DNA from: a virus
Lineage: Duplodnaviria; Heunggongvirae; Uroviricota; Caudoviricetes
Length of the DNA stretch: 64,000 nucleotides
IMG/VR virus record: IMGVR_UViG_3300023174_000099
Coordinates: 1 to 64,000 of that record
Direction: 5' to 3' (one strand)
Shown here piece after piece: positions 12,907 to 44,528 of this stretch (position 1 is the first letter of the stretch; each line of letters opens with the position of its first letter). Below the pieces are notes generated by a model. The model was not told the DNA's origin. It did not search any database and worked only from the letters and a program-made list of their open reading frames with translations. The position numbers were made by a program, and so were the translations under genes.

Positions 12907-13065
12907 TAATAATCGGCGGCACAGCTAGGCCAGCTAGTGTCTCATCTGCGAATCTTGTCTGGGCGTGCGCAGACCCTAGGCCACCTGTGGAGGTGGTAAT
13001 GAGGAAGGGACAAGAGCCGAATATAAATACAATAAATAAACCTAATATTAGGTTAAGAATTTGCC

Positions 13066-13085
13066 GAAAAGGGTAGCTCCCCTGA
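13066..13085 (+). promoter_or_regulatory. Conserved homing-endonuclease leader motif GAAAAGGGTAGCTCCCCTG (copy 1 of 4)
   Basis: Near-identical copies at about 27667, 28634 and 32660, each 40-70 nt upstream of an HNH or GIY-YIG gene. Confidence 0.6.
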
Positions 13086-13128
13086 CTTCTCCCTTGAAGA
13101 AGTCTAGGCAATTAGTTTCAAGGGAACA

Positions 13129-13800
13129 ATGAAAACAACAGGTATAATATATAGAATTTGGAATATAAAAAGTGGTAAATCGTATATAGGTAAAACATAT
13201 AGATGCTTTTATATACGAATAGATGAACATATAAAACAACGATATAGACCCGTACATAAAAATAGACCTATTTATAGAGCTTTAAATAAATATGGGTTAG
13301 AAGCGTTCTCAGCAGAAATATTAGGCACTTTTTGCTCATCTATACTAGACGAGCAAGAACAATATTTTATAAAATTATATAACTCATTTGGGTCTACAGG
13401 GTATAATGCTACCCAGGGTGGCGAAGGTACAAAACTTTTATCAGTTGACACCGAACTCTTAATGGATACCTACAATAAATATGGCAATATAGCCGCAACG
13501 GCCAGATATTTAAAAATTGATGATGGAACGTGCACTAGACTTCTAAAATCAATACCTGAGTTTAAAGCTAGAACAAGAAATGATATTTTTAGAATGGGTA
13601 TAAAACCTGTTTTACTAGAAGACTTAGAATTTACTTTTAATGATGTTTATGAGTGTGCTAATTTCTTAATACAATCAGATGTATCTAATATTACTAATGA
13701 GGTACAAGTTGCTAAATCAATTAGAAAAGTTTGTACGGGGCATTTAAAAACATATCTAGGATTAAAGTTTTCATATACAGATACTGCGGACGTGGTATAA
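13129..13800 (+). CDS. GIY-YIG homing endonuclease
   Basis: N-terminal IYRIWNIKSGKSYIGKT...R...H motif (GIY-YIG). C-terminal region conserved with the ORF at 32723. Confidence 0.75.
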   Translation: MKTTGIIYRIWNIKSGKSYIGKTYRCFYIRIDEHIKQRYRPVHKNRPIYRALNKYGLEAFSAEILGTFCSSILDEQEQYFIKLYNSFGSTGYNATQGGEGTKLLSVDTELLMDTYNKYGNIAATARYLKIDDGTCTRLLKSIPEFKARTRNDIFRMGIKPVLLEDLEFTFNDVYECANFLIQSDVSNITNEVQVAKSIRKVCTGHLKTYLGLKFSYTDTADVV

Positions 13801-21452: not shown

Positions 21453-21462
21453 AATATATCTT

Positions 21463-21491
21463 GACTTTTCGAGCATAATTTGTTATAACAA
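21463..21491 (+). promoter_or_regulatory. sigma70 promoter: TTGACT-17-TATAAC
   Basis: aaatatatcTTGACTtttcgagcataatttgtTATAAC. Confidence 0.45.
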
Positions 21492-21532
21492 ATGCATAGT
21501 CGCTGACGATTTGTAATAAAAATGGACAGCAC

Positions 21533-21560
21533 GCGAGTTCGACTCTCGCCGTCTCCACCA
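21533..21560 (+). other. tRNA 3'-half-like element (T-arm gcgagTTCGACTctcgc + 7-nt acceptor strand + A + CCA) with no recognisable 5' half
   Basis: Matches canonical T-arm, acceptor and CCA geometry. No complementary 5' acceptor strand found within 90 nt upstream. Confidence 0.35.
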
Positions 21561-21875
21561 TTTACGGGGACGACTTGGAAATCGACTGACATTACATAGA
21601 CCTTTCCGAGACTATTGACTGGCAAAGTGCCATAATTAACTGCAAACGATAACGTTGCATTCGCGCTAGCTGCATAAGCTAGACGACAGGCGGTGGGAGC
21701 CTTGGAACAGAATCCCACACTCAAAGGAGAGATATGCGTAACATTTGGACAATACCTTTTAATAATAATTATTATATTTGCTGGAAAGACAAACAAGGTA
21801 AGACCCAGCATCGTCCAATGACTGATGCAGAAGATCGTGCCTACTTTACCTCCAAAGACCCTGAAAGAACCCTAA

Positions 21876-27344: not shown

Positions 27345-27620
27345 ATGACTATTGATGAGATTCGCGATCAACTTCGGCAGGGAACCCTAGAGGTTCACTT
27401 CAAGAAGAAGGACGGCTCAGTTCGTCGTATGATCTGCACTACACACACTGATGTGCTTGGTGATTCCTCAGAAAGCACTCGTAGCGCTCCCGTTTTTCAG
27501 AATGAGATTGTAACCGTATGGGACATGGAAGCCGATGCTTGGCGTTCCTTCCGGTTTGATAGTATTATTAATTTTGGACCTGTATCGCCCCCGCCTTCTA
27601 AGCGGTCGTTAAAAGCGTAA
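27345..27620 (+). CDS. Hypothetical protein; 3' end runs into a degenerate tRNA-like element
   Basis: RBS aaaggaaacgggaATG. Confidence 0.45.
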   Translation: MTIDEIRDQLRQGTLEVHFKKKDGSVRRMICTTHTDVLGDSSESTRSAPVFQNEIVTVWDMEADAWRSFRFDSIINFGPVSPPPSKRSLKA

Positions 27621-27657
27621 TTGGAGTATGCAGGTTCGAGTCCTGCTAGGTTCACCA
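27577..27657 (+). other. Degenerate tRNA-like element (good T-arm gcaggTTCGAGTcctgc, acceptor, ACCA; no foldable anticodon arm)
   Basis: ggacctg/taggttc acceptor pairing with wobbles; the internal region does not fold into D or anticodon arms. Confidence 0.3.
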
Positions 27658-27727
27658 GTTTGCCGAAAAGGGTAGCTCCCCTGTTAGTGCCTATACACTA
27701 ACTAGGCAAAGTCTTATAGGAGACAAA

Positions 27728-28306
27728 ATGTACAGAGAAATTAAAGAAAATGAACTAAGAATAGATAGCTCACTAAAGTATGCTTACTTTCTAGATAAGA
27801 ATCATCCACTAGCAACTGGTAACTCATATAGGGTTTACTACCATAGGCATATAATGTCAATGAAGCTAGGCAGATGGGTTACTTCAGAAGAAGTTGTTCA
27901 TCACAAAGATGAAAACCGTTCCAATAACTCAATAGATAATCTAGAATTAACAACTAATAGTGAACATGCTAGGCTACATCAAACTATATTAGTAGATATA
28001 ACCTGTCAATGTTGTAATACCATGTTTAAACCAAAAGACTCAGATCAGATTTATTGCAGTCAAAAATGTGCTTCCTTAGCTAGACAGAAAAAGAGTCATA
28101 ACTCTTTTGATAAAAGCTTATTGGAAAAACAAATTTGGGAGCTTGGATTTACACAGACAGGTAAAATATATGGCTACTCAGATACTGGTATTAAAAAGTT
28201 AGCCAAAAAGTTAAATTGTGCTTTACCTCCTCCATATTTTCATAATAAAATACGAAGTTCCGAGGAAAGACTAAATTCATATTATTCGGATGTAGCTCAG
28301 CGGTAG
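27728..28306 (+). CDS. HNH homing endonuclease with C-terminal zinc ribbon; 3' end overlaps tRNA-Asn
   Basis: HHKDENRSNNSIDNLELTTNSEHARLH is an HNH motif; CQCCN...CSQKC; leader motif GGGTAGCTCCCCTG upstream. Confidence 0.75.
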   Translation: MYREIKENELRIDSSLKYAYFLDKNHPLATGNSYRVYYHRHIMSMKLGRWVTSEEVVHHKDENRSNNSIDNLELTTNSEHARLHQTILVDITCQCCNTMFKPKDSDQIYCSQKCASLARQKKSHNSFDKSLLEKQIWELGFTQTGKIYGYSDTGIKKLAKKLNCALPPPYFHNKIRSSEERLNSYYSDVAQR

Positions 28307-28361
28307 TAGCTCTTGTCTGTTAAACAAGTGGTCGCAGGTTCGATCCCTGCCATCCGAGCCA
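28286..28361 (+). tRNA. tRNA-Asn (GTT)
   Basis: Acceptor tcggatg/catccga, loop cuGUUaa, T-arm gcaggTTCGATCcctgc, CCA. Confidence 0.75.
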
Positions 28362-28377
28362 GTTTTTGGAGATAACC

Positions 28378-28545
28378 ATGCTAGAAATAGCTATTGCACT
28401 ATACGTAATTGTCGGAATCATTACGTTTCTAACGGCGATCTCCGATAAATATGTTAAGTTAAACTCTAAACTAACAACTATTTTTGGTTTACTTAGTTTC
28501 GTTTGGCCCATCCTTTGGCTAGTTTATCTAGTCGATGAGCTATAA
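28378..28545 (+). CDS. Small membrane protein (55 aa, below the ORF-track cutoff)
   Basis: ATG after RBS tggagataacc; two hydrophobic segments. Confidence 0.35.
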   Translation: MLEIAIALYVIVGIITFLTAISDKYVKLNSKLTTIFGLLSFVWPILWLVYLVDEL

Positions 28546-28573
28546 AATATTGTGGGCCTGTATTTCAAAGGTA

Positions 28574-28648
28574 GAAAATGCTCCTCATAAGAGCTAAGAT
28601 GGGAGTTCGAGTCTCTCCGGGCCTACCAAGATAGCTGAAAAGGGTAGC
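28574..28648 (+). tRNA. tRNA-Met (CAT)
   Basis: Acceptor gggcctg/cgggcct (2 GU), loop cuCAUaa, T-arm gggagTTCGAGTctctc, CCA. Confidence 0.6.
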
Positions 28649-28701
28649 TCCCCTGTTAGTACCTATATGCTAACTAGGCTAATGCCTTATAGGAGGCTAA
28701 A

Positions 28702-29295
28702 ATGTTAATTTCAGAGAAAGAAGAACTTATAGCTTTAATATTAAGTGACTTAGATACAAGTATCTTACATAGATATAATATAAACTTTACTATTTTTTGT
28801 AATGCCATAGCTAGTGGTGAAAATCTCCACTCCAAGTTGGGTGTAAGTTACAATAGTTTAAGTAAAATAATTAAGGACTTGTTTCCCAATAAAAATAAAG
28901 GTAAACTCCTAAATTATGTATTATCTTTAGTAGATCACAAAGTTTGTACTAGTTGCGAAAAATTCTTGCATACAGAAGATTTTAGATTAAACTCAAGCAA
29001 TGCTGATGGTCTTAATGCACATTGCAAAATGTGCCATGCTGTAGTTACTTATAAAACACAAAATTATAGACAATCAAACTATAATGCTAGAAAGGCTCAG
29101 AGAACTCCCAAATGGGCGAACCTTGAGACAATAAAAGAGTTTTATTCTAAGTGCCCAGAAGGCTACCATGTAGATCATATAATACCTTTGAACGGGGAAT
29201 TAGTATGCGGATTACATGTTGAGAATAACCTTCAATATCTAACAGCGCAAGAAAATATTCAAAAGAGCAATAAGTTTGTGCCTTATAGTATATGA
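28702..29295 (+). CDS. HNH homing endonuclease with zinc-finger region
   Basis: EGYHVDHIIPLNGELVCGLHVENNLQYLTAQEN is an HNH motif; CTSC..CKMCH; conserved leader motif upstream. Confidence 0.75.
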   Translation: MLISEKEELIALILSDLDTSILHRYNINFTIFCNAIASGENLHSKLGVSYNSLSKIIKDLFPNKNKGKLLNYVLSLVDHKVCTSCEKFLHTEDFRLNSSNADGLNAHCKMCHAVVTYKTQNYRQSNYNARKAQRTPKWANLETIKEFYSKCPEGYHVDHIIPLNGELVCGLHVENNLQYLTAQENIQKSNKFVPYSI

Positions 29296-29858
29296 CAACA
29301 ATTCTTGCACTAGACATGTCGGGAACTCCTCGTGCATGGATCAATTGCGACGAAGCCATTAGCTATCATGCTAAAGACCTCGTCGCATGGTCACTTGGCG
29401 AAACTGTCGCTGAGTATCACGGAGGGTTCAATCGTATAACCGGAAAGCAGAGCAAGCTTGAAACTAGCAGTATTATTGCTATTAAAGGCTCCGAGTTCCA
29501 TAAACATACTAAAGTTCTTCTAACAAATCCTACCCTTTTTGCTAGAGACAGGCATTTATGTGCTTATTGTGGGTTTACCCATACCAATCATAGATTTTTT
29601 AGCCGCGATCATATTGTGCCACGTTCGCGTGGTGGTAAAGACGAGTGGACTAATGTGGTTACAGCCTGCGTGCCTTGTAATCAAGAGAAAGGCGCTAAGA
29701 CTCTTAATGAGTCTGATATGAGTCTTATTTATGTTCCCTATGCTCCTAATCACTATGAGAATATGATTCTTAAGAACAAACGTATTCTAGCAGATCAAAT
29801 GGAATATCTCCTAGCAGGAGTTCCAAAACACAGTAGGGTGTGGTGGCCGACCGTTTAG
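29292..29858 (+). CDS. HNH endonuclease (McrA-like)
   Basis: CAYCG...DHIVPRSRGGKDEWTNVVTACVPCNQEK. Confidence 0.75.
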   Translation: MTTILALDMSGTPRAWINCDEAISYHAKDLVAWSLGETVAEYHGGFNRITGKQSKLETSSIIAIKGSEFHKHTKVLLTNPTLFARDRHLCAYCGFTHTNHRFFSRDHIVPRSRGGKDEWTNVVTACVPCNQEKGAKTLNESDMSLIYVPYAPNHYENMILKNKRILADQMEYLLAGVPKHSRVWWPTV

Positions 29859-29913
29859 GCATCTGATTGCAACCCAGATTCAAGCAGGTTAAATTCCTGT
29901 CCACACCTCCAAT

Positions 29914-32575: not shown

Positions 32576-32650
32576 TCTAGATGTGGCCTAATGGTAAGGC
32601 ACCGCGTTTGGGGCGCGGGGACTGGGAGTTCGAGTCTCTCCATCTAGACC
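32576..32650 (+). tRNA. tRNA-Pro (TGG)
   Basis: Acceptor ctagatg/catctag, anticodon stem ccgcg/cgcgg with loop uuUGGgg, T-arm gggagTTCGAGTctctc, CCA. Confidence 0.7.
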
Positions 32651-32722
32651 AGTTTTTGCTGAAAGGGTAGCTCCCCTGTCTGTCCTCCTACGACAGAATA
32701 AGCAATTCAAGTAGGAGTTAAA

Positions 32723-33223
32723 ATGAATGGTACTTTATACAGAATTATAAATATGAAAAATGATAAGTCGTATATTGGTAAGACTTATCAAGATATGCAC
32801 ACTAGACTATCTCAACACATACGTGACGCTAATAAGTTTCCCTATAGACCCCTTTATGCTGCTATGAACAAGTACGGACTAGATTCTTTCTCTATGGAAA
32901 TCATTGGAGAATTTCCAGAAGGTATCCTGGAGCATAAAGAAATAGAATATATAGAAATATACAATTCTTACGGCCAGAGAGGCTATAACGCCACAAAAGG
33001 TGGGGATGGAGTTAGATACCTAGACCTCCCAGAAGAAGAAATAGTAAATCTATATAAATCAAATACTATAAAATACATAGCTAATTTCTATAGCGTAGAT
33101 CATAGTACTATACGAAAAATACTACTAAATCAAGGTATCTCCCTAAGAAATCATAAGGAAGATAGTATTTTTGCGGAAAGTAAAAGAAAAAATGCATCTA
33201 AAATACTTTTAGCACATTCATAA
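32723..33223 (+). CDS. GIY-YIG homing endonuclease, interrupted: in-frame TAA at 33221 separates the catalytic domain from a conserved C-terminal domain (33224-33378)
   Basis: LYRIINMKNDKSYIGKTY is a GIY-YIG motif. After the stop the same frame reads VYENTYECAKDLIEIG...VCTGNRKSYKGLIFKYDI, homologous to the C-terminus of the 13129 gene. Confidence 0.7.
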   Translation: MNGTLYRIINMKNDKSYIGKTYQDMHTRLSQHIRDANKFPYRPLYAAMNKYGLDSFSMEIIGEFPEGILEHKEIEYIEIYNSYGQRGYNATKGGDGVRYLDLPEEEIVNLYKSNTIKYIANFYSVDHSTIRKILLNQGISLRNHKEDSIFAESKRKNASKILLAHS

Positions 33224-33251
33224 GTATATGAAAATACTTATGAATGTGCTA
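33205..33251. repeat. Perfect 17-bp inverted repeat (agcacattcataagtat / atacttatgaatgtgct) flanking the in-frame TAA of the GIY-YIG gene
   Basis: Direct reading of the sequence; loop atgaaa. Confidence 0.7.
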
Positions 33252-33384
33252 AAGATCTTATTGAAATAGGTATAATTAGTCCAACACTGTCTATTAAGTC
33301 AATACAGCATGGTATAAGAAATGTATGCACAGGTAATAGAAAGTCCTATAAAGGCTTAATATTTAAATACGATATTTAGTAGAT

Positions 33385-33460
33385 AGACTAGTAGCTCAGT
33401 GGTAGTAGCGCTGCTTTTACACAGCAGAGGTCATAGGTTCGAAACCTATCTAGTCTACCA
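33385..33460 (+). tRNA. tRNA-Val (TAC)
   Basis: Acceptor agactag/ctagtct, anticodon stem ctgct/agcag with loop uuUACac, T-arm ataggTTCGAAAcctat, CCA. Confidence 0.7.
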
Positions 33461-41068: not shown

Positions 41069-41896
41069 ATGACAGTAGATGAGCTATTAACAAAAGAGAA
41101 CATATACTTTCGTTCCAGTGGAAAAGACCATGTAGTATGCTGTTTAAATCCAGATCACGAGGATAAAAACCCCAGTATGAGAATCGACAAGATTACTGGG
41201 GTTTTTAACTGTATGTCTTGTGGATTCTCTGGTAATATATTCGAGCACTTTGGTGGAAAACCTAATTGGCTTGGTATTCAGAGAGAGCGATTTAAAAGTC
41301 TAGTACAGAATAAACTAAAGGAGACGGTAGGTCTAGAGATTCCAGAAAATGCTACTCCCTTCGATCAGGAGTGGCGAGGTATCTCTAAAGAGACTTTCCG
41401 TAAATTTAGAGCCTTCCAGCATCCAGACTATGTTAATAGAGTGGTGTTTCCTATCACTGATATGTCTGGTAAGATCAGAGTGTTTTGTGGTAGAGACTTA
41501 GCGAACAACACACCCAAGTATATGTTCTATCCCGCAGAAACACACATACCTTTGTTTCCTATGGTAAAACCCTATAATGGCGATATTATTCTAGTAGAAG
41601 GCATCTTTGATATGCTAAACTTACACGACAAAGGTTTAACCAATGTTTGTTGTATGTTTGGTGTTAATAAGGGAAGCATTGACAAGCTCAAGCTTCTAAA
41701 AGTACAGAACATAAGCTCGGTAACTCTAATGCTAGATTCGGATGAAGCAGGGCAGCGCGGAGCTGAAAAGCTTAAAGCAGAGTTAGAGGGCCTACACGTA
41801 AGCGTAAACAACTTTGTATTACAAACAGTAAAAGATCCAGGTGAATTGACAGCCTCTAAAGTGATCAAATTAAAGGAGACCCTATACGGTGGCTAA
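41069..41896 (+). CDS. DNA primase (zinc-binding + TOPRIM)
   Basis: CCLNPDHEDKNPSM...CMSCG zinc ribbon; TOPRIM VEGIFDMLNLHD ... DSDEAG. Confidence 0.7.
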   Translation: MTVDELLTKENIYFRSSGKDHVVCCLNPDHEDKNPSMRIDKITGVFNCMSCGFSGNIFEHFGGKPNWLGIQRERFKSLVQNKLKETVGLEIPENATPFDQEWRGISKETFRKFRAFQHPDYVNRVVFPITDMSGKIRVFCGRDLANNTPKYMFYPAETHIPLFPMVKPYNGDIILVEGIFDMLNLHDKGLTNVCCMFGVNKGSIDKLKLLKVQNISSVTLMLDSDEAGQRGAEKLKAELEGLHVSVNNFVLQTVKDPGELTASKVIKLKETLYGG

Positions 41897-43634
41897 TGTA
41901 GCATTAATTGAGACTAAACCAAGCAGAACAAACTTCTTCAGTGAATTTGATGAAGCCTTTGAATTTGATAGGTTTGCCCTATGTTCTGACCCAACAATTA
42001 AAAAGGTCCTAAAGAAAAACGTAGATATTGAGTTCAATCCAGATAACTACGAATGGGTAATTCTAGTAGGTGCTGACACAGTAAAGTACTTTACTAAGGC
42101 ATCAGTAACAGACCATAGTGGCAAGATTGTTGATGAGAAGTTTCTCCCGGTAATCAATCCAGCTATGGTATCGTTCAAGCCTGAGTCTGCTAGAACTTGG
42201 GAAGAATCCAAAAAGAATATCGTCGGGTATATCACTGGGTCTAAGAAAGTAGTAAAGTATGCTACTGACAAGATCTATGGTATTCGTGACAGCGAGCAGC
42301 TTAAGAAGTTCTTGCAGGCTGCCATTGATAGTCCAAATTCTTTCATCGGTCTAGACTCTGAAACTTCCGGACTGTATCCTAGAGACGGTTACATTCTAGG
42401 TGTTAGTGTTTGTTATGAACGCGATCATGGCGTTTATATTGACTCAGACTGCATTGACGAAGAAGCATCATGGCTTTTTCAGGAACTATTCAACAAGAAG
42501 ATCGTAGTACTACACAACGCTAAGTTCGATATTCCCTTCTTCAAGTTCCATATGGGATGGGAGTTTCCTCGGTATGAAGATACAATGCTTCTTCACTACT
42601 GCATTGATGAAAATCCCGGTACCCACGGACTTAAGCAACTAGCTCTTCAGTTTACAGAATACGGTGACTATGAACAGCCAATGTATGACTGGATTGCTGA
42701 TTACTGTAAGCGTAACAGTGTTCTAAAGGAAGACTTCACCTTCGAAGCTATTCCTTTTGAAGTTATTCAGCCATACGCTGCTATTGACGCTATTGTAACT
42801 TTTCTTATCTACGCCAAGCTAAAGCCCTCCGTTCAGAAGAACAAGAAGCTAGACAAGGTATACAATGAGATCTTGATTCCAGCATCTGACTTTCTAATTG
42901 ACGTTCAGGACAATGGAGTTCCGTTCGATATGGATCGCCTAAAGTTTGGTCAGCTAGAAATGCAGAAGAGCATCGACGAGTCAGTTGCAGAGTTGTACTT
43001 AGAGCCTAAGATCAAAGAGTTTGAAGAATTTCAGGGTAAGCAGTTCAATCCTAATAGTGTCATGCAGCTACGCACGCTATTGTTTGATTTCTTAAAACTT
43101 TCCCCTACAGGTAAAAAGACTGGTACTGGTTCCAATTCAACTGATGCCGAAGTGCTTCAGGAACTAGCAGGACAACACCCCGTACCTCAGTTAATCCTTA
43201 ACATCCGTCAAAAGAGTAAGATTAAGAATACTTATCTGGACAAGATTATCCCACAGCTAGATAGGGATGGTAGACTTCGTACTAGCTTTAATATTCACGG
43301 CACTACTAGCGGACGACTAAGCTCTAGTGGTAAACTGAATATGCAGCAGCTACCACGAGATAACCCCGTTGTCAAGGGAGCCATCAAGGCAAAGCCTGGC
43401 CACAAGATCATCTCGATGGACTTGACCACTGCGGAAGTTTACGTAGCCGCAGTATTATCCAAAGATCCAGCACTTCAAGATGTGTTTAGAACTGGCCAAG
43501 ATTTTCACTCTACAGTAGCTCACCAGGTATTTAAGCTGGATTGCGAAGTAAGCGAAGTTAAAAAACTATATCCGCTTATGCGGCAAGCTGCTAAAAGCAC
43601 TACATTCGGGGTTAGTAACATAGCCCTCCTATAA
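41889..43634 (+). CDS. polA: DNA polymerase I family (family A), N-terminal part: 3'-5' exonuclease + palm up to motif B; truncated inside motif B
   Basis: Exo I FIGLDSETSGL; ends ...MRQAAKSTTFGVSNIALL* where RQAAKxxxFG is motif B. Confidence 0.75.
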   Translation: MANVALIETKPSRTNFFSEFDEAFEFDRFALCSDPTIKKVLKKNVDIEFNPDNYEWVILVGADTVKYFTKASVTDHSGKIVDEKFLPVINPAMVSFKPESARTWEESKKNIVGYITGSKKVVKYATDKIYGIRDSEQLKKFLQAAIDSPNSFIGLDSETSGLYPRDGYILGVSVCYERDHGVYIDSDCIDEEASWLFQELFNKKIVVLHNAKFDIPFFKFHMGWEFPRYEDTMLLHYCIDENPGTHGLKQLALQFTEYGDYEQPMYDWIADYCKRNSVLKEDFTFEAIPFEVIQPYAAIDAIVTFLIYAKLKPSVQKNKKLDKVYNEILIPASDFLIDVQDNGVPFDMDRLKFGQLEMQKSIDESVAELYLEPKIKEFEEFQGKQFNPNSVMQLRTLLFDFLKLSPTGKKTGTGSNSTDAEVLQELAGQHPVPQLILNIRQKSKIKNTYLDKIIPQLDRDGRLRTSFNIHGTTSGRLSSSGKLNMQQLPRDNPVVKGAIKAKPGHKIISMDLTTAEVYVAAVLSKDPALQDVFRTGQDFHSTVAHQVFKLDCEVSEVKKLYPLMRQAAKSTTFGVSNIALL

Positions 43635-43967
43635 AGTAATTTATAGGTAATAAACCTGCTCAATTGCTGGAAGCCTAAGTCTAAAATTAGATATGGTAAT
43701 CAGCAGCCAGAGGCGATAGGGATATCGTCAAATGGTTCAGAGACTCACAGAATTTCTAGAACAGAAGTTGCTGGGGTAATAAATTTTATATCTTGACTTT
43801 TTTTGGTCGAAATATAGTACCATCTTAATATTAAAAATTAATTTGGTGTTTATTACAAAAGGCAGGTATCTACGTATGGAATTAAATTTAGAAAACTATA
43901 CTAACAAATGGTAGAAAACGTAGATAAAGGTATAGTCCGTGCCCTACTAAAGTAGGGACTAACATGT
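43635..43967 (+). other. 333-nt in-frame non-coding insert splitting polA (candidate ORF-less group I intron or true split-gene junction); contains a TTGACT promoter-like element and hairpin ccctactAAagtaggg
   Basis: No ORF. Length is a multiple of 3. Flanks reconstitute motif B as FG-x-x-YQAG. Confidence 0.4.
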
Positions 43968-44528
43968 ATGTATCAGGCTGGTGCTCCTACTGTAGCCGAT
44001 CAGATCAATAAAGAAGCCCGCAGTAATAATATGGATTACAGATTCTCCCTACAGGAAGCTCAAGATGTTATTGACCAGTACTTCAAGACCTTCAAAGGAC
44101 TTAAGAGCTGGATTGATGTAAACAAGGAGTTCATTTCCAAGAATGGTTACATCTATTCTTTCTTTGGTCGTAAGCGCAGACTACCAAATGTTCTATCTAG
44201 CGATGGTGGCATCCGTAGTCATGCTGTAAGATCTGGTCTAAACTTCCTCGTGCAGTCTCCTAGCTCAGATGTTAACTTGCTAGGTGGCATTGATATGAAT
44301 AAGTTCATTAAGGACAACAAGATGAAGACTCGGATCTTCGCTCTAGTTCATGACTCTATTCTAGCAGAAGTACCAGAAGACGAGATCGAGTTGTATACCA
44401 CTACCCTTAAGAAGTTCATTCAAAAGGATCGTGGGCTTTCGATTCTTGGATGCCCTATCGGATGCGATTTCGAAATGGGTGATGACTACTCTCTAGGTAA
44501 GTTTGAGAAACAGTATGGAATACTATGA
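43968..44528 (+). CDS. polA: DNA polymerase I family, C-terminal part (rest of motif B through motif C)
   Basis: MYQAGAPTVADQIN..., LVHDSILAEVPEDE (motif C). Confidence 0.7.
   Translation: MYQAGAPTVADQINKEARSNNMDYRFSLQEAQDVIDQYFKTFKGLKSWIDVNKEFISKNGYIYSFFGRKRRLPNVLSSDGGIRSHAVRSGLNFLVQSPSSDVNLLGGIDMNKFIKDNKMKTRIFALVHDSILAEVPEDEIELYTTTLKKFIQKDRGLSILGCPIGCDFEMGDDYSLGKFEKQYGIL

Follow-up and report, generated by a model that had tools for sequence, protein, structure and literature searches.

Does a stop codon set within a perfect hairpin in a phage homing endonuclease gene work as a translational switch, or is it the scar of a mutation? The question is raised by a GIY-YIG gene in a 64,000-nucleotide stretch of viral DNA (hereafter the window), in which the reading frame is broken by an in-frame TAA lying inside a palindrome. 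The initial annotation had suggested either a recent pseudogenization by palindrome insertion or a regulated stop codon readthrough or recoding site. We consider it probable that the locus is an I-TevI/Seg-type free-standing GIY-YIG homing endonuclease gene, recently truncated by one templated mutation, and ordinary gene decay, rather than a trick of translation, is the most likely account of it.

The source of the window appears, from sequence comparison, to be an uncultured and distant T5-like phage. Its DNA polymerase shares 44–47% identity with the enzymes of T5-like phages that infect Proteus, Enterobacter and Vibrio, and no DNA-level match to the known phages in INPHARED was obtained beyond stretches of 73–81 nt in tRNA genes. 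Co-oriented tRNA genes are clustered from ~12.8 kb to 33.9 kb, 20 of them detected by ARAGORN and one more, tRNA-Cys(GCA) at 29837–29908, by Rfam; a permuted tmRNA lies within the same stretch. Genes resembling those of homing endonucleases are scattered through this cluster (Table 1). The copy under study is a free-standing intergenic insertion between tRNA-Pro and tRNA-Val, with its ATG (32723) 71 nt downstream of tRNA-Pro(TGG) and a GC content of 31% vs 41% for the window, and six further tRNA genes follow the hairpin on the same strand. The closest full-length homolog, L022, is likewise placed after tRNA-Pro(TGG), and the homologs in general are found after tRNA-Pro, tRNA-Cys, tRNA-Leu or tRNA-Met in other phage tRNA clusters.

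Table 1. Features of the interrupted endonuclease gene, its leader and its surroundings (positions in the window)
Feature	Position	Strand	Remarks
GIY-YIG genes	13129, 32723		in tRNA cluster
T5orf172/MUG113 gene	20204		in tRNA cluster
HNH genes	23165, 27728, 29292		in tRNA cluster
Intact paralogous cassette	13062..13800	+	same leader (core 13066-13084) and 223-aa GIY-YIG gene 13129-13800, after tRNA-Met
tRNA-Pro(TGG)	32577..32651	+	adjoins the endonuclease cassette on its upstream side
Conserved structured 5' leader	32656..32722	+	ahead of the truncated gene
Leader P1	32656-32660 paired with 32701-32705	+	
Leader core GAAA-GGGTAGCTCCCCTG	32661-32678	+	
Leader P3 hairpin	32679-32684 paired with 32692-32697	+	loop CTCCTAC 32685-32691
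Truncated GIY-YIG ORF	32723..33223	+	166 codons and TAA; catalytic domain intact, linker, helix-turn-helix-like stretch
Left (derived) arm	33208..33227	+	reverse complements 33234-33253 exactly; shorter by one codon than the homologous segment
In-frame TAA	33221..33223	+	aligned to E/K/D of homologs (GAA/AAA/GAG/GAT); in 5' arm of stem
Stranded in-frame remnant	33224..33379	+	51 codons and TAG; encodes the C-terminal module, predicted to bind DNA
Spacer ATGAAA	33228..33233	+	6 nt, length as in homologs
Right (ancestral) arm ATACTTATGAATGTGCTAAA	33234..33253	+	(N)TYECAK codons; 20/20 identical to L102 homolog
tRNA-Val(TAC)	33385..33460	+	directly downstream; cassette inside co-oriented tRNA cluster

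The sequence confirms that the GIY-YIG reading frame ends at TAA 33221–33223, as first annotated, and its 166-aa product scores 27.8 bits against the Pfam GIY-YIG family PF01541, for which the cut-off is 22.6. The 51 in-frame codons reported beyond the stop are present as well. They read VYENTYECAKDL...FKYDI and close at TAG 33377–33379, five bases ahead of tRNA-Val; the span originally given for the locus, 32723–33378, was right in its start, its true end being 33379. The frame after the stop stays open in just 0.55% of shuffles (p = 0.0055), and the other two frames contain 4 and 10 stops. No in-frame ATG, GTG or TTG occurs in the remnant (33224–33379), which rules out independent translation of the tail. 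When the two GIY-YIG proteins were aligned, the conceptual 218-aa product matched the paralog at 13129–13800 from end to end, the part after the stop included, with 37% identity (E 2e-45), and the proposed homology of the tail to the paralog's C-terminus is thereby borne out. Furthermore, the PHROG homing-endonuclease profile covers residues 3–212 of the conceptual product, running across the stop. Identity of the tail to its closest homologs (24–25 of 45 residues, 53–56%) compares with 54% for the part before the stop.

The catalytic-domain residues that are invariant in the family are all kept, including YIGKT, R28, H32, E73 and N89. The family profile matches the I-TevI catalytic domain (E 8e-8), and an AlphaFold model of the homolog P0002 (51% identical; pLDDT 84) resembles the structures 1MK0 and 1LN0 with TM 0.77–0.80 at 32% identity. 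The segment rewritten in the window corresponds in this model to a beta-hairpin (E156–158, E163–165) that opens the C-terminal module, a small beta-beta-alpha-alpha-beta unit carried in 1–3 copies by the relatives, as would be expected of a DNA-binding repeat. Searched alone, the module had no match in Pfam or PHROGs, and its best structural neighbor in the PDB, the small DNA-binding protein 8B6E, is a weak match (E 0.78, TM 0.78). The paralog and the homologs covering the region have the module intact; in the window it is encoded behind TAA 33221–33223 and is not joined to the nuclease in one polypeptide. Conservation was assessed over 12 intact relatives (11 metagenomic homologs and the paralog), in which F165 is invariant and D160 nearly so; both are altered in the window, and both fall within the rewritten arm and spacer. 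As predicted from the sequence, the 166-aa product keeps the nuclease and the helix-turn-helix-like linker and loses its only C-terminal module. The isolated catalytic domain of I-TevI binds and cuts poorly, and by analogy homing activity is likely lost in the truncated protein.

The gene was compared with 15 metagenomic homologs at 41–59% identity, most of them 200–224 aa long; in three, additional copies of the C-terminal module bring the length to 275–281 aa, and another, a 158-aa fragment, breaks off before the site. An uninterrupted version of the gene does occur in relatives: where the site is covered, a stop at this position is found in 0 of the 15 homologs, all of 59% identity or less, and the paralog is also without it. 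The codons of the homologs are GTT GAT ATA GGC GAA GTA TTT AAC AAT ACC TAT GAA TGT GCA, and those of the window are GCA CAT --- TCA TAA GTA TAT GAA AAT ACT TAT GAA TGT GCT. In terms of protein, the homologs have K-I-L-I-V-D-I-G-E-V-F-N-N-T-Y-E-C-A, and the window has K-I-L-L-A-H-(gap)-S-stop-V-Y-E-N-T-Y-E-C-A. No closer uninterrupted relative was found in INPHARED (DNA and protein), IMG/VR, the JGI metagenome contigs, GTDB or the set of 5.8 billion proteins.

The inverted repeat around the stop is perfect, as annotated, but it measures 20 bp rather than 17 bp (33208–33227/33234–33253, with a 6-nt spacer), and neither arm carries a mismatch. It is the longest inverted repeat of the whole 64-kb window, and when the window was simulated 100 times with a first-order Markov model, the longest perfect hairpin repeat came to 8–13 bp. 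Folded as RNA, it gives a stem of 21 bp, one of them G-U, at -27.7 kcal/mol (z = -8.2 vs shuffles), compared with -5 to -14 kcal/mol for the same stretch in the homologs. With the same geometry and a 6-nt spacer, 6–9 of the 20 positions are complementary in the homologs vs 20 of 20 in the window. In L022, L023 and L107 pairing already exists over the innermost 4–6 bp, and this seed repeat, AAGTAT/ATACTT, comes from the E/K-V-F and N-T-Y codons. Weak imperfect stems of 8–10 bp occur at the site in L102 and L107; the stem itself has no counterpart in L022 (the positional ortholog), the other homologs or the paralog. The arm sequence recurs in the window solely as the homologous codons of the paralog, with 3 mismatches. 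A mobile palindromic element, or a repeated regulatory hairpin, was considered and rejected, as no other copy of the arm is present in the window.

The two arms differ in how they relate to the family, as can be read directly from the alignment. The right arm is identical at 20 of 20 positions to that of L102, whose gene is ~50% identical in protein. The left arm is unlike that of every homolog, and it is there that the changes lie: it encodes L-A-H-S-stop-V-Y, where the homologs have I-V-D-I-G-E-V-F. The seed quasi-palindrome in the homologs and the restriction of the changes to one arm therefore point to a quasi-palindrome, or template-switch, mutation. The pseudogenization proposed in the initial annotation is accordingly retained in part: a recent inactivation is probable, and a palindrome insertion is not what the alignment displays, since the homologs all have one codon more in this region and the left arm has been overwritten by a templated replacement. 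The spacer differs as well (TAT GAA vs TTT AAY/GAT in the homologs), for which arm copying gives no account; its reverse complement matches the L102 spacer at 5 of 6 positions, and in direct orientation it matches the L107 spacer at 4 of 6.

Under such a mechanism, the ancestral gene would have carried a short natural inverted repeat, AAGTAT-N6-ATACTT, at the start of its C-terminal module. During DNA synthesis, either in replication or in the repair of a break, the nascent strand would have folded back or switched strand at this quasi-palindrome, some 11–14 further bases would have been copied off the opposite arm, and the strand would then have returned. The repeat would thereby have grown from ~6 bp to 20 perfect bp, turning V-D-I-G-E into A-H-S-stop with a net change of -3 nt, so that the frame was kept by chance. 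The outcome would be a 166-aa protein without its C-terminal DNA-binding module, followed by a 51-codon untranslated remnant. The ancestral sequence and the polarity of the change rest on the family consensus because the nearest uninterrupted relatives are just 51–59% identical, and one event or a few successive events would fit alike.

Mutations of this type have been documented in several systems. PMC8604942 credits Ripley (1982) with first proposing template switching at quasi-palindromes, in phage. In the coding sequence of yeast REG2, a 5-bp repeat with a 5-nt spacer became a perfect 16-bp repeat, with five adjacent amino acid changes (PMC8604942), and quasi-palindrome mutation is also documented in E. 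coli (PMC7202029). Template switching is known to make long perfect RNA hairpins (PMC8794818), and its events are strongly elevated in double-strand-break repair synthesis (bioRxiv 10.1101/2023.08.09.552703). Such repair synthesis is also the route by which homing endonuclease genes get copied, which may link it to the event at this locus. The change in the window resembles the known cases in that one arm has been overwritten, the repeat growing from ~6 to 20 bp here and from 5 to 16 bp in REG2. It is unlike them in that a mobile gene of a phage gained a nonsense codon and lost 3 nt, and in that the polarity of the change comes from distant homologs, not from a sister strain.

A conserved leader RNA precedes the truncated gene, and its motif was noticed on comparing the positional ortholog. 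Four endonuclease-like ORFs of the window have the motif, GAAAAGGGTAGCTCCCCTG, 63–65 nt ahead of them: the GIY-YIG gene at 13129, the HNH_3 gene at 27728, the ORF at 28702 and the truncated gene at 32723, the copy of which has two mismatches. We collected 104 distinct instances from the window, the homolog loci and at least 118 IMG/VR stretches. Their elements follow in the order P1, GAAAA, an invariant hairpin GGG-UAGCUC-CCC, UG, P3, CUA and the 3' strand of P1, and the 19-nt core CGAAAAGGGUAGCUCCCCUG is invariant. P1 is a helix of 4–5 bp with 25 different sequences, and at least 4 bp are paired in 102 of 103 instances among the matches listed; P3 is a variable hairpin of 5–6 bp with a loop of 6–7 nt. 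The P3 loop ahead of the truncated gene, CTCCTAC, is complementary to GTAGGAG (32711–32717) over the Shine-Dalgarno sequence, which predicts a pseudoknot. In 88 of 98 instances among the matches listed, the whole P3 loop can pair with the bases that cover the Shine-Dalgarno sequence in its 5' part, compared with ~8% when loops were swapped among instances (43 different loops, likewise among the matches listed).

The leader is widespread among uncultured phages and is shared by endonuclease genes from five unrelated families or more: among the matches listed, the downstream ORFs include an HNH-related cluster (74 instances) and GIY-YIG, LAGLIDADG, DUF559, T5orf172 and HNH_3+AP2 genes. One copy is present in a cultured phage, E. 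coli phage EP_H11 (OP688485, 22502–22570). Rfam 15 contained no match to the leader, nor did a search of 27600–28760, which holds two copies, with E up to 10; at the gathering threshold no known RNA family was recognized at the hairpin or at the leader. No leader that is shared in this way and joins a three-way junction to a pseudoknot, with a 19-nt core that does not vary, was found described in a literature search. The leader looks to be an undescribed structure with a covarying pseudoknot that would cover the ribosome-binding site. Sequestration of this site restrains the phage homing endonucleases I-TevI and mobE and has been implicated for segB (PMC3014915). Control of expression of this cassette would then sit at initiation, and the leader is intact in the truncated copy.

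The leader, the Shine-Dalgarno sequence, the catalytic residues, the tail with its open frame and both arms of the palindrome are undecayed, and the truncation is therefore probably recent. A kept frame and an undecayed tail are equally the look of a functional readthrough gene, in which ribosomes would pass the TAA at a set frequency to give a 166-aa nuclease-only form and a 218-aa full-length form, limiting the active endonuclease. The tail is in frame, open (p = 0.0055), conserved like the rest of the protein and without a start codon of its own, and tight down-regulation is known for homing endonucleases (PMC3014915). We nevertheless regard programmed readthrough as very unlikely, given that the stop and the hairpin are missing from all 15 homologs and from the paralog. 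TAA is, moreover, the main terminator of this phage, closing 32 of the 55 long ORFs in the window, and no ochre suppressor (TTA anticodon) is found among the tRNAs of the window, so that the regulated readthrough or recoding put forward in the initial annotation is disfavored. The TAA here is followed by G, a context that gives strong termination in E. coli. Known recoding stimulators begin a few bases 3' of the recoding site, but the TAA occupies positions 14–16 of the 20-nt 5' arm; the stem would be melted with the stop in the A site, and no structure would be left downstream at decoding because the stop sits inside that arm. A readthrough product would also be without the family-conserved D and F, and control of expression appears already present at the 5' leader. 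Frameshifting was rejected: a +1 shift at TCA-TAA meets TAG after 15 codons and a -1 shift meets TGA after 3, neither giving a homologous tail. Bypassing of the gene 60 type was rejected too, as the sole in-frame TCA landing codon (33299–33301) would delete the conserved YECA helix.

Could the hairpin have been selected for a function of its own, the loss of the C-terminus being tolerated collateral? RNase III or other processing, an attenuator or a protein-binding palindrome could be imagined for a structure located within a co-oriented tRNA cluster that needs processing, with both arms undecayed, and, at 21 bp, the perfect stem has the length that RNase III needs. This too is unlikely, since the hairpin is unique, with no counterpart in L022, the other homologs or the paralog and with its arm absent elsewhere in the window, and changes on one side only, with no compensatory pairs, are what a mutational origin would leave rather than selection. 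A lenient terminator scan lists it on both strands; only 5 of the 20 stem pairs are G-C, however, the tail is GATCTTATTG, with GAUCUUAUUG a poor U-tract, and termination here would sever the six downstream tRNAs. A function gained after the event, for example RNase III processing in the tRNA operon, may exist, though nothing supports it. An artefact of sequencing or assembly, for instance a fold-back chimera, might be suspected where the evidence consists of metagenomic contigs only, one of them at ~15x coverage by its name. However, contigs of two other assemblies (an SPAdes-style ENA assembly and the Logan assembly of SRR7812574) are base-identical over 6.5 and 3.9 kb, and an artefact of a single assembler is unlikely because both carry the same sequence. 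The truncated allele is present in every assembly that has the gene and is not a rare variant, and the identical truncated ORF is found as P0001 in the set of 5.8 billion proteins. The change is, in addition, a local and nearly length-neutral replacement in a colinear gene, not an inverted junction, and we hold an artefact to be highly improbable. As for a reassigned stop codon, the gene family does occur in recoded phages, and many distant gut and rumen homologs contain 1–4 in-frame TAG codons. The codon here, however, is TAA, with which most long ORFs end; code 11 gives uninterrupted ORFs of 581 to 1145 aa, and the window has no suppressor tRNA. The TAGs of the gut and rumen homologs reflect TAG-recoded phages and are unrelated to the TAA of the window, for which an alternative code has a practically negligible chance of being the explanation.

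Truncation by a templated mutation, the reading preferred here, places the locus among several known systems. T4 SegB is a free-standing GIY-YIG homing endonuclease encoded within a tRNA gene cluster (PMC2330249). The gene in the window is alike in lying between phage tRNA genes, in joining an N-terminal catalytic domain to C-terminal DNA-binding modules in its intact form, and in that RNA structure at the translation start has been implicated in limiting expression of SegB (PMC3014915). It differs in being truncated and in belonging to a phage that is T5-like, not T4-like. No sequence match to SegB itself was obtained, and the family is at most 28% identical to any endonuclease of cultured phages. 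The likeness to I-TevI lies in the catalytic domain, both by profile and by fold (1MK0, 1LN0); unlike I-TevI, the gene is not intron-encoded, and its C-terminal module is a beta-beta-alpha-alpha-beta unit. The C-terminal part of I-TevI consists of a zinc finger, a helix and a helix-turn-helix.

The apparently defective mobA of T4 (PMC3014915) is likewise a selfish endonuclease gene inactivated in place, but in the window the lesion appears as a single identifiable event in a gene that is otherwise intact. Inactivation in place is as expected in the homing cycle once an element is fixed. The bypass in T4 gene 60 (PMC3014915) is alike in having a stop in a stem-loop inside a coding sequence, near a homing endonuclease gene. 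In contrast to gene 60, the tail in the window is in frame, which makes a hop needless, a landing at TCA 33299–33301 would drop 26 codons, and nothing is conserved at the site in relatives.

That the hairpin-embedded TAA is a working switch, in which the ratio of the 166-aa to the full-length protein would be set by low readthrough, or by processing of the tRNA-operon transcript that depends on the hairpin, we consider a long shot; if true, it would be a new phage means of throttling a toxic homing enzyme, made in one template-switch step. Hairpins and truncations of this kind are already known, and the truncation opens no new question; the leader RNA is the more valuable item and is worth a study of its own. 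The locus is best seen as a clean natural case of two known processes meeting, the decay of a homing endonuclease gene and template-switch mutation, useful as an illustration and as a warning that a stop codon enclosed by a perfect hairpin may record a past mutation rather than signal recoding.

Unrelated families of homing endonucleases, including HNH-related, GIY-YIG, LAGLIDADG, DUF559 and T5orf172 proteins, are preceded by one conserved structured 5′ leader. Copies of the leader were observed in the window, in homolog loci, in an Escherichia coli phage, and in at least 118 stretches of IMG/VR. The 197-aa ORF downstream of one window copy had no match in a Pfam search; by BLAST, it was grouped with a large HNH-related set of leader-associated ORFs, the same cluster that contains the HNH_3 gene at 27728.

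Leader copies and other features
Feature	Sequence	Positions	Detail
Leader	window	13062-13128, 27661-27727, 28633-28701, 32656-32722	
Leader	homolog loci L022, L102, L104, L106, L107		two copies each in L102 and L104
Leader	phage EP_H11 (L226), OP688485	22502-22570	
ORF	window	28702-29295	197 aa
Permuted tmRNA	window	21457-21721	RF04321, 83.6 bits; RF01849, 68.7 bits
tRNA-Cys(GCA)	window	29837-29908	Rfam, 45.4 bits
DNA polymerase, N-terminal part	window	41889-43634	
Group I intron	window	43603-43958	RF00028, 76.7 bits
ORF following the intron	window	43968-44528	
tRNA, anticodon CTA	L102	8325-8399	amber suppressor

The elements of the leader are arranged in the order P1, GAAAA, the GGGUAGCUCCCC hairpin, UG, the P3 hairpin, CUA, and the 3′ strand of P1. 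The GGGUAGCUCCCC hairpin is invariant and the P3 hairpin is variable, with 43 different loop sequences. A covarying pseudoknot of 6-7 nt is formed by the P3 loop over the Shine-Dalgarno region in 88 of 98 leader instances; when loops were swapped as a control, the figure was 8%. The leader probably serves to repress translation, and its invariant core suggests that it binds a factor or acts catalytically. No match to the leader was found in Rfam 15, and no account of it was found among the papers searched.

The T5-like phage of the window carries a two-piece tmRNA of alphaproteobacterial type (tag peptide ANDNVAFALAA, as predicted by ARAGORN), which hints at an alphaproteobacterial host. Its DNA polymerase gene is split by a group I intron, and its tRNA-Cys, with a mismatch in the anticodon stem, was not called by ARAGORN. 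Distant GIY-YIG homologs on gut and rumen metagenome contigs (L001, L002, L024, L029, L052, L068, L074, L082, L099 and others) contain one to four TAG codons in frame, at various conserved positions, which indicates that their phages are TAG-reassigned; the homolog in L035 contains one in-frame TAA. The CTA-anticodon tRNA, labeled "tRNA-Pyl" by ARAGORN, lies inside the tRNA cluster of L102, the phage contig encoding homolog P0010.

The closest full-length homolog of the truncated GIY-YIG endonuclease (P0002, 51% identity) is encoded directly 3′ of tRNA-Pro(TGG) behind the same leader, the same place as the window copy (comparison of window 32577-32722 with L022 2852-3000). Other homologs were found after tRNA-Cys, tRNA-Leu or tRNA-Met. 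Among the loci examined, several have the cassette of leader and endonuclease gene starting within ~15 nt of a tRNA 3′ end. These locations suggest the 3′ flanks of tRNA genes as targets of homing.
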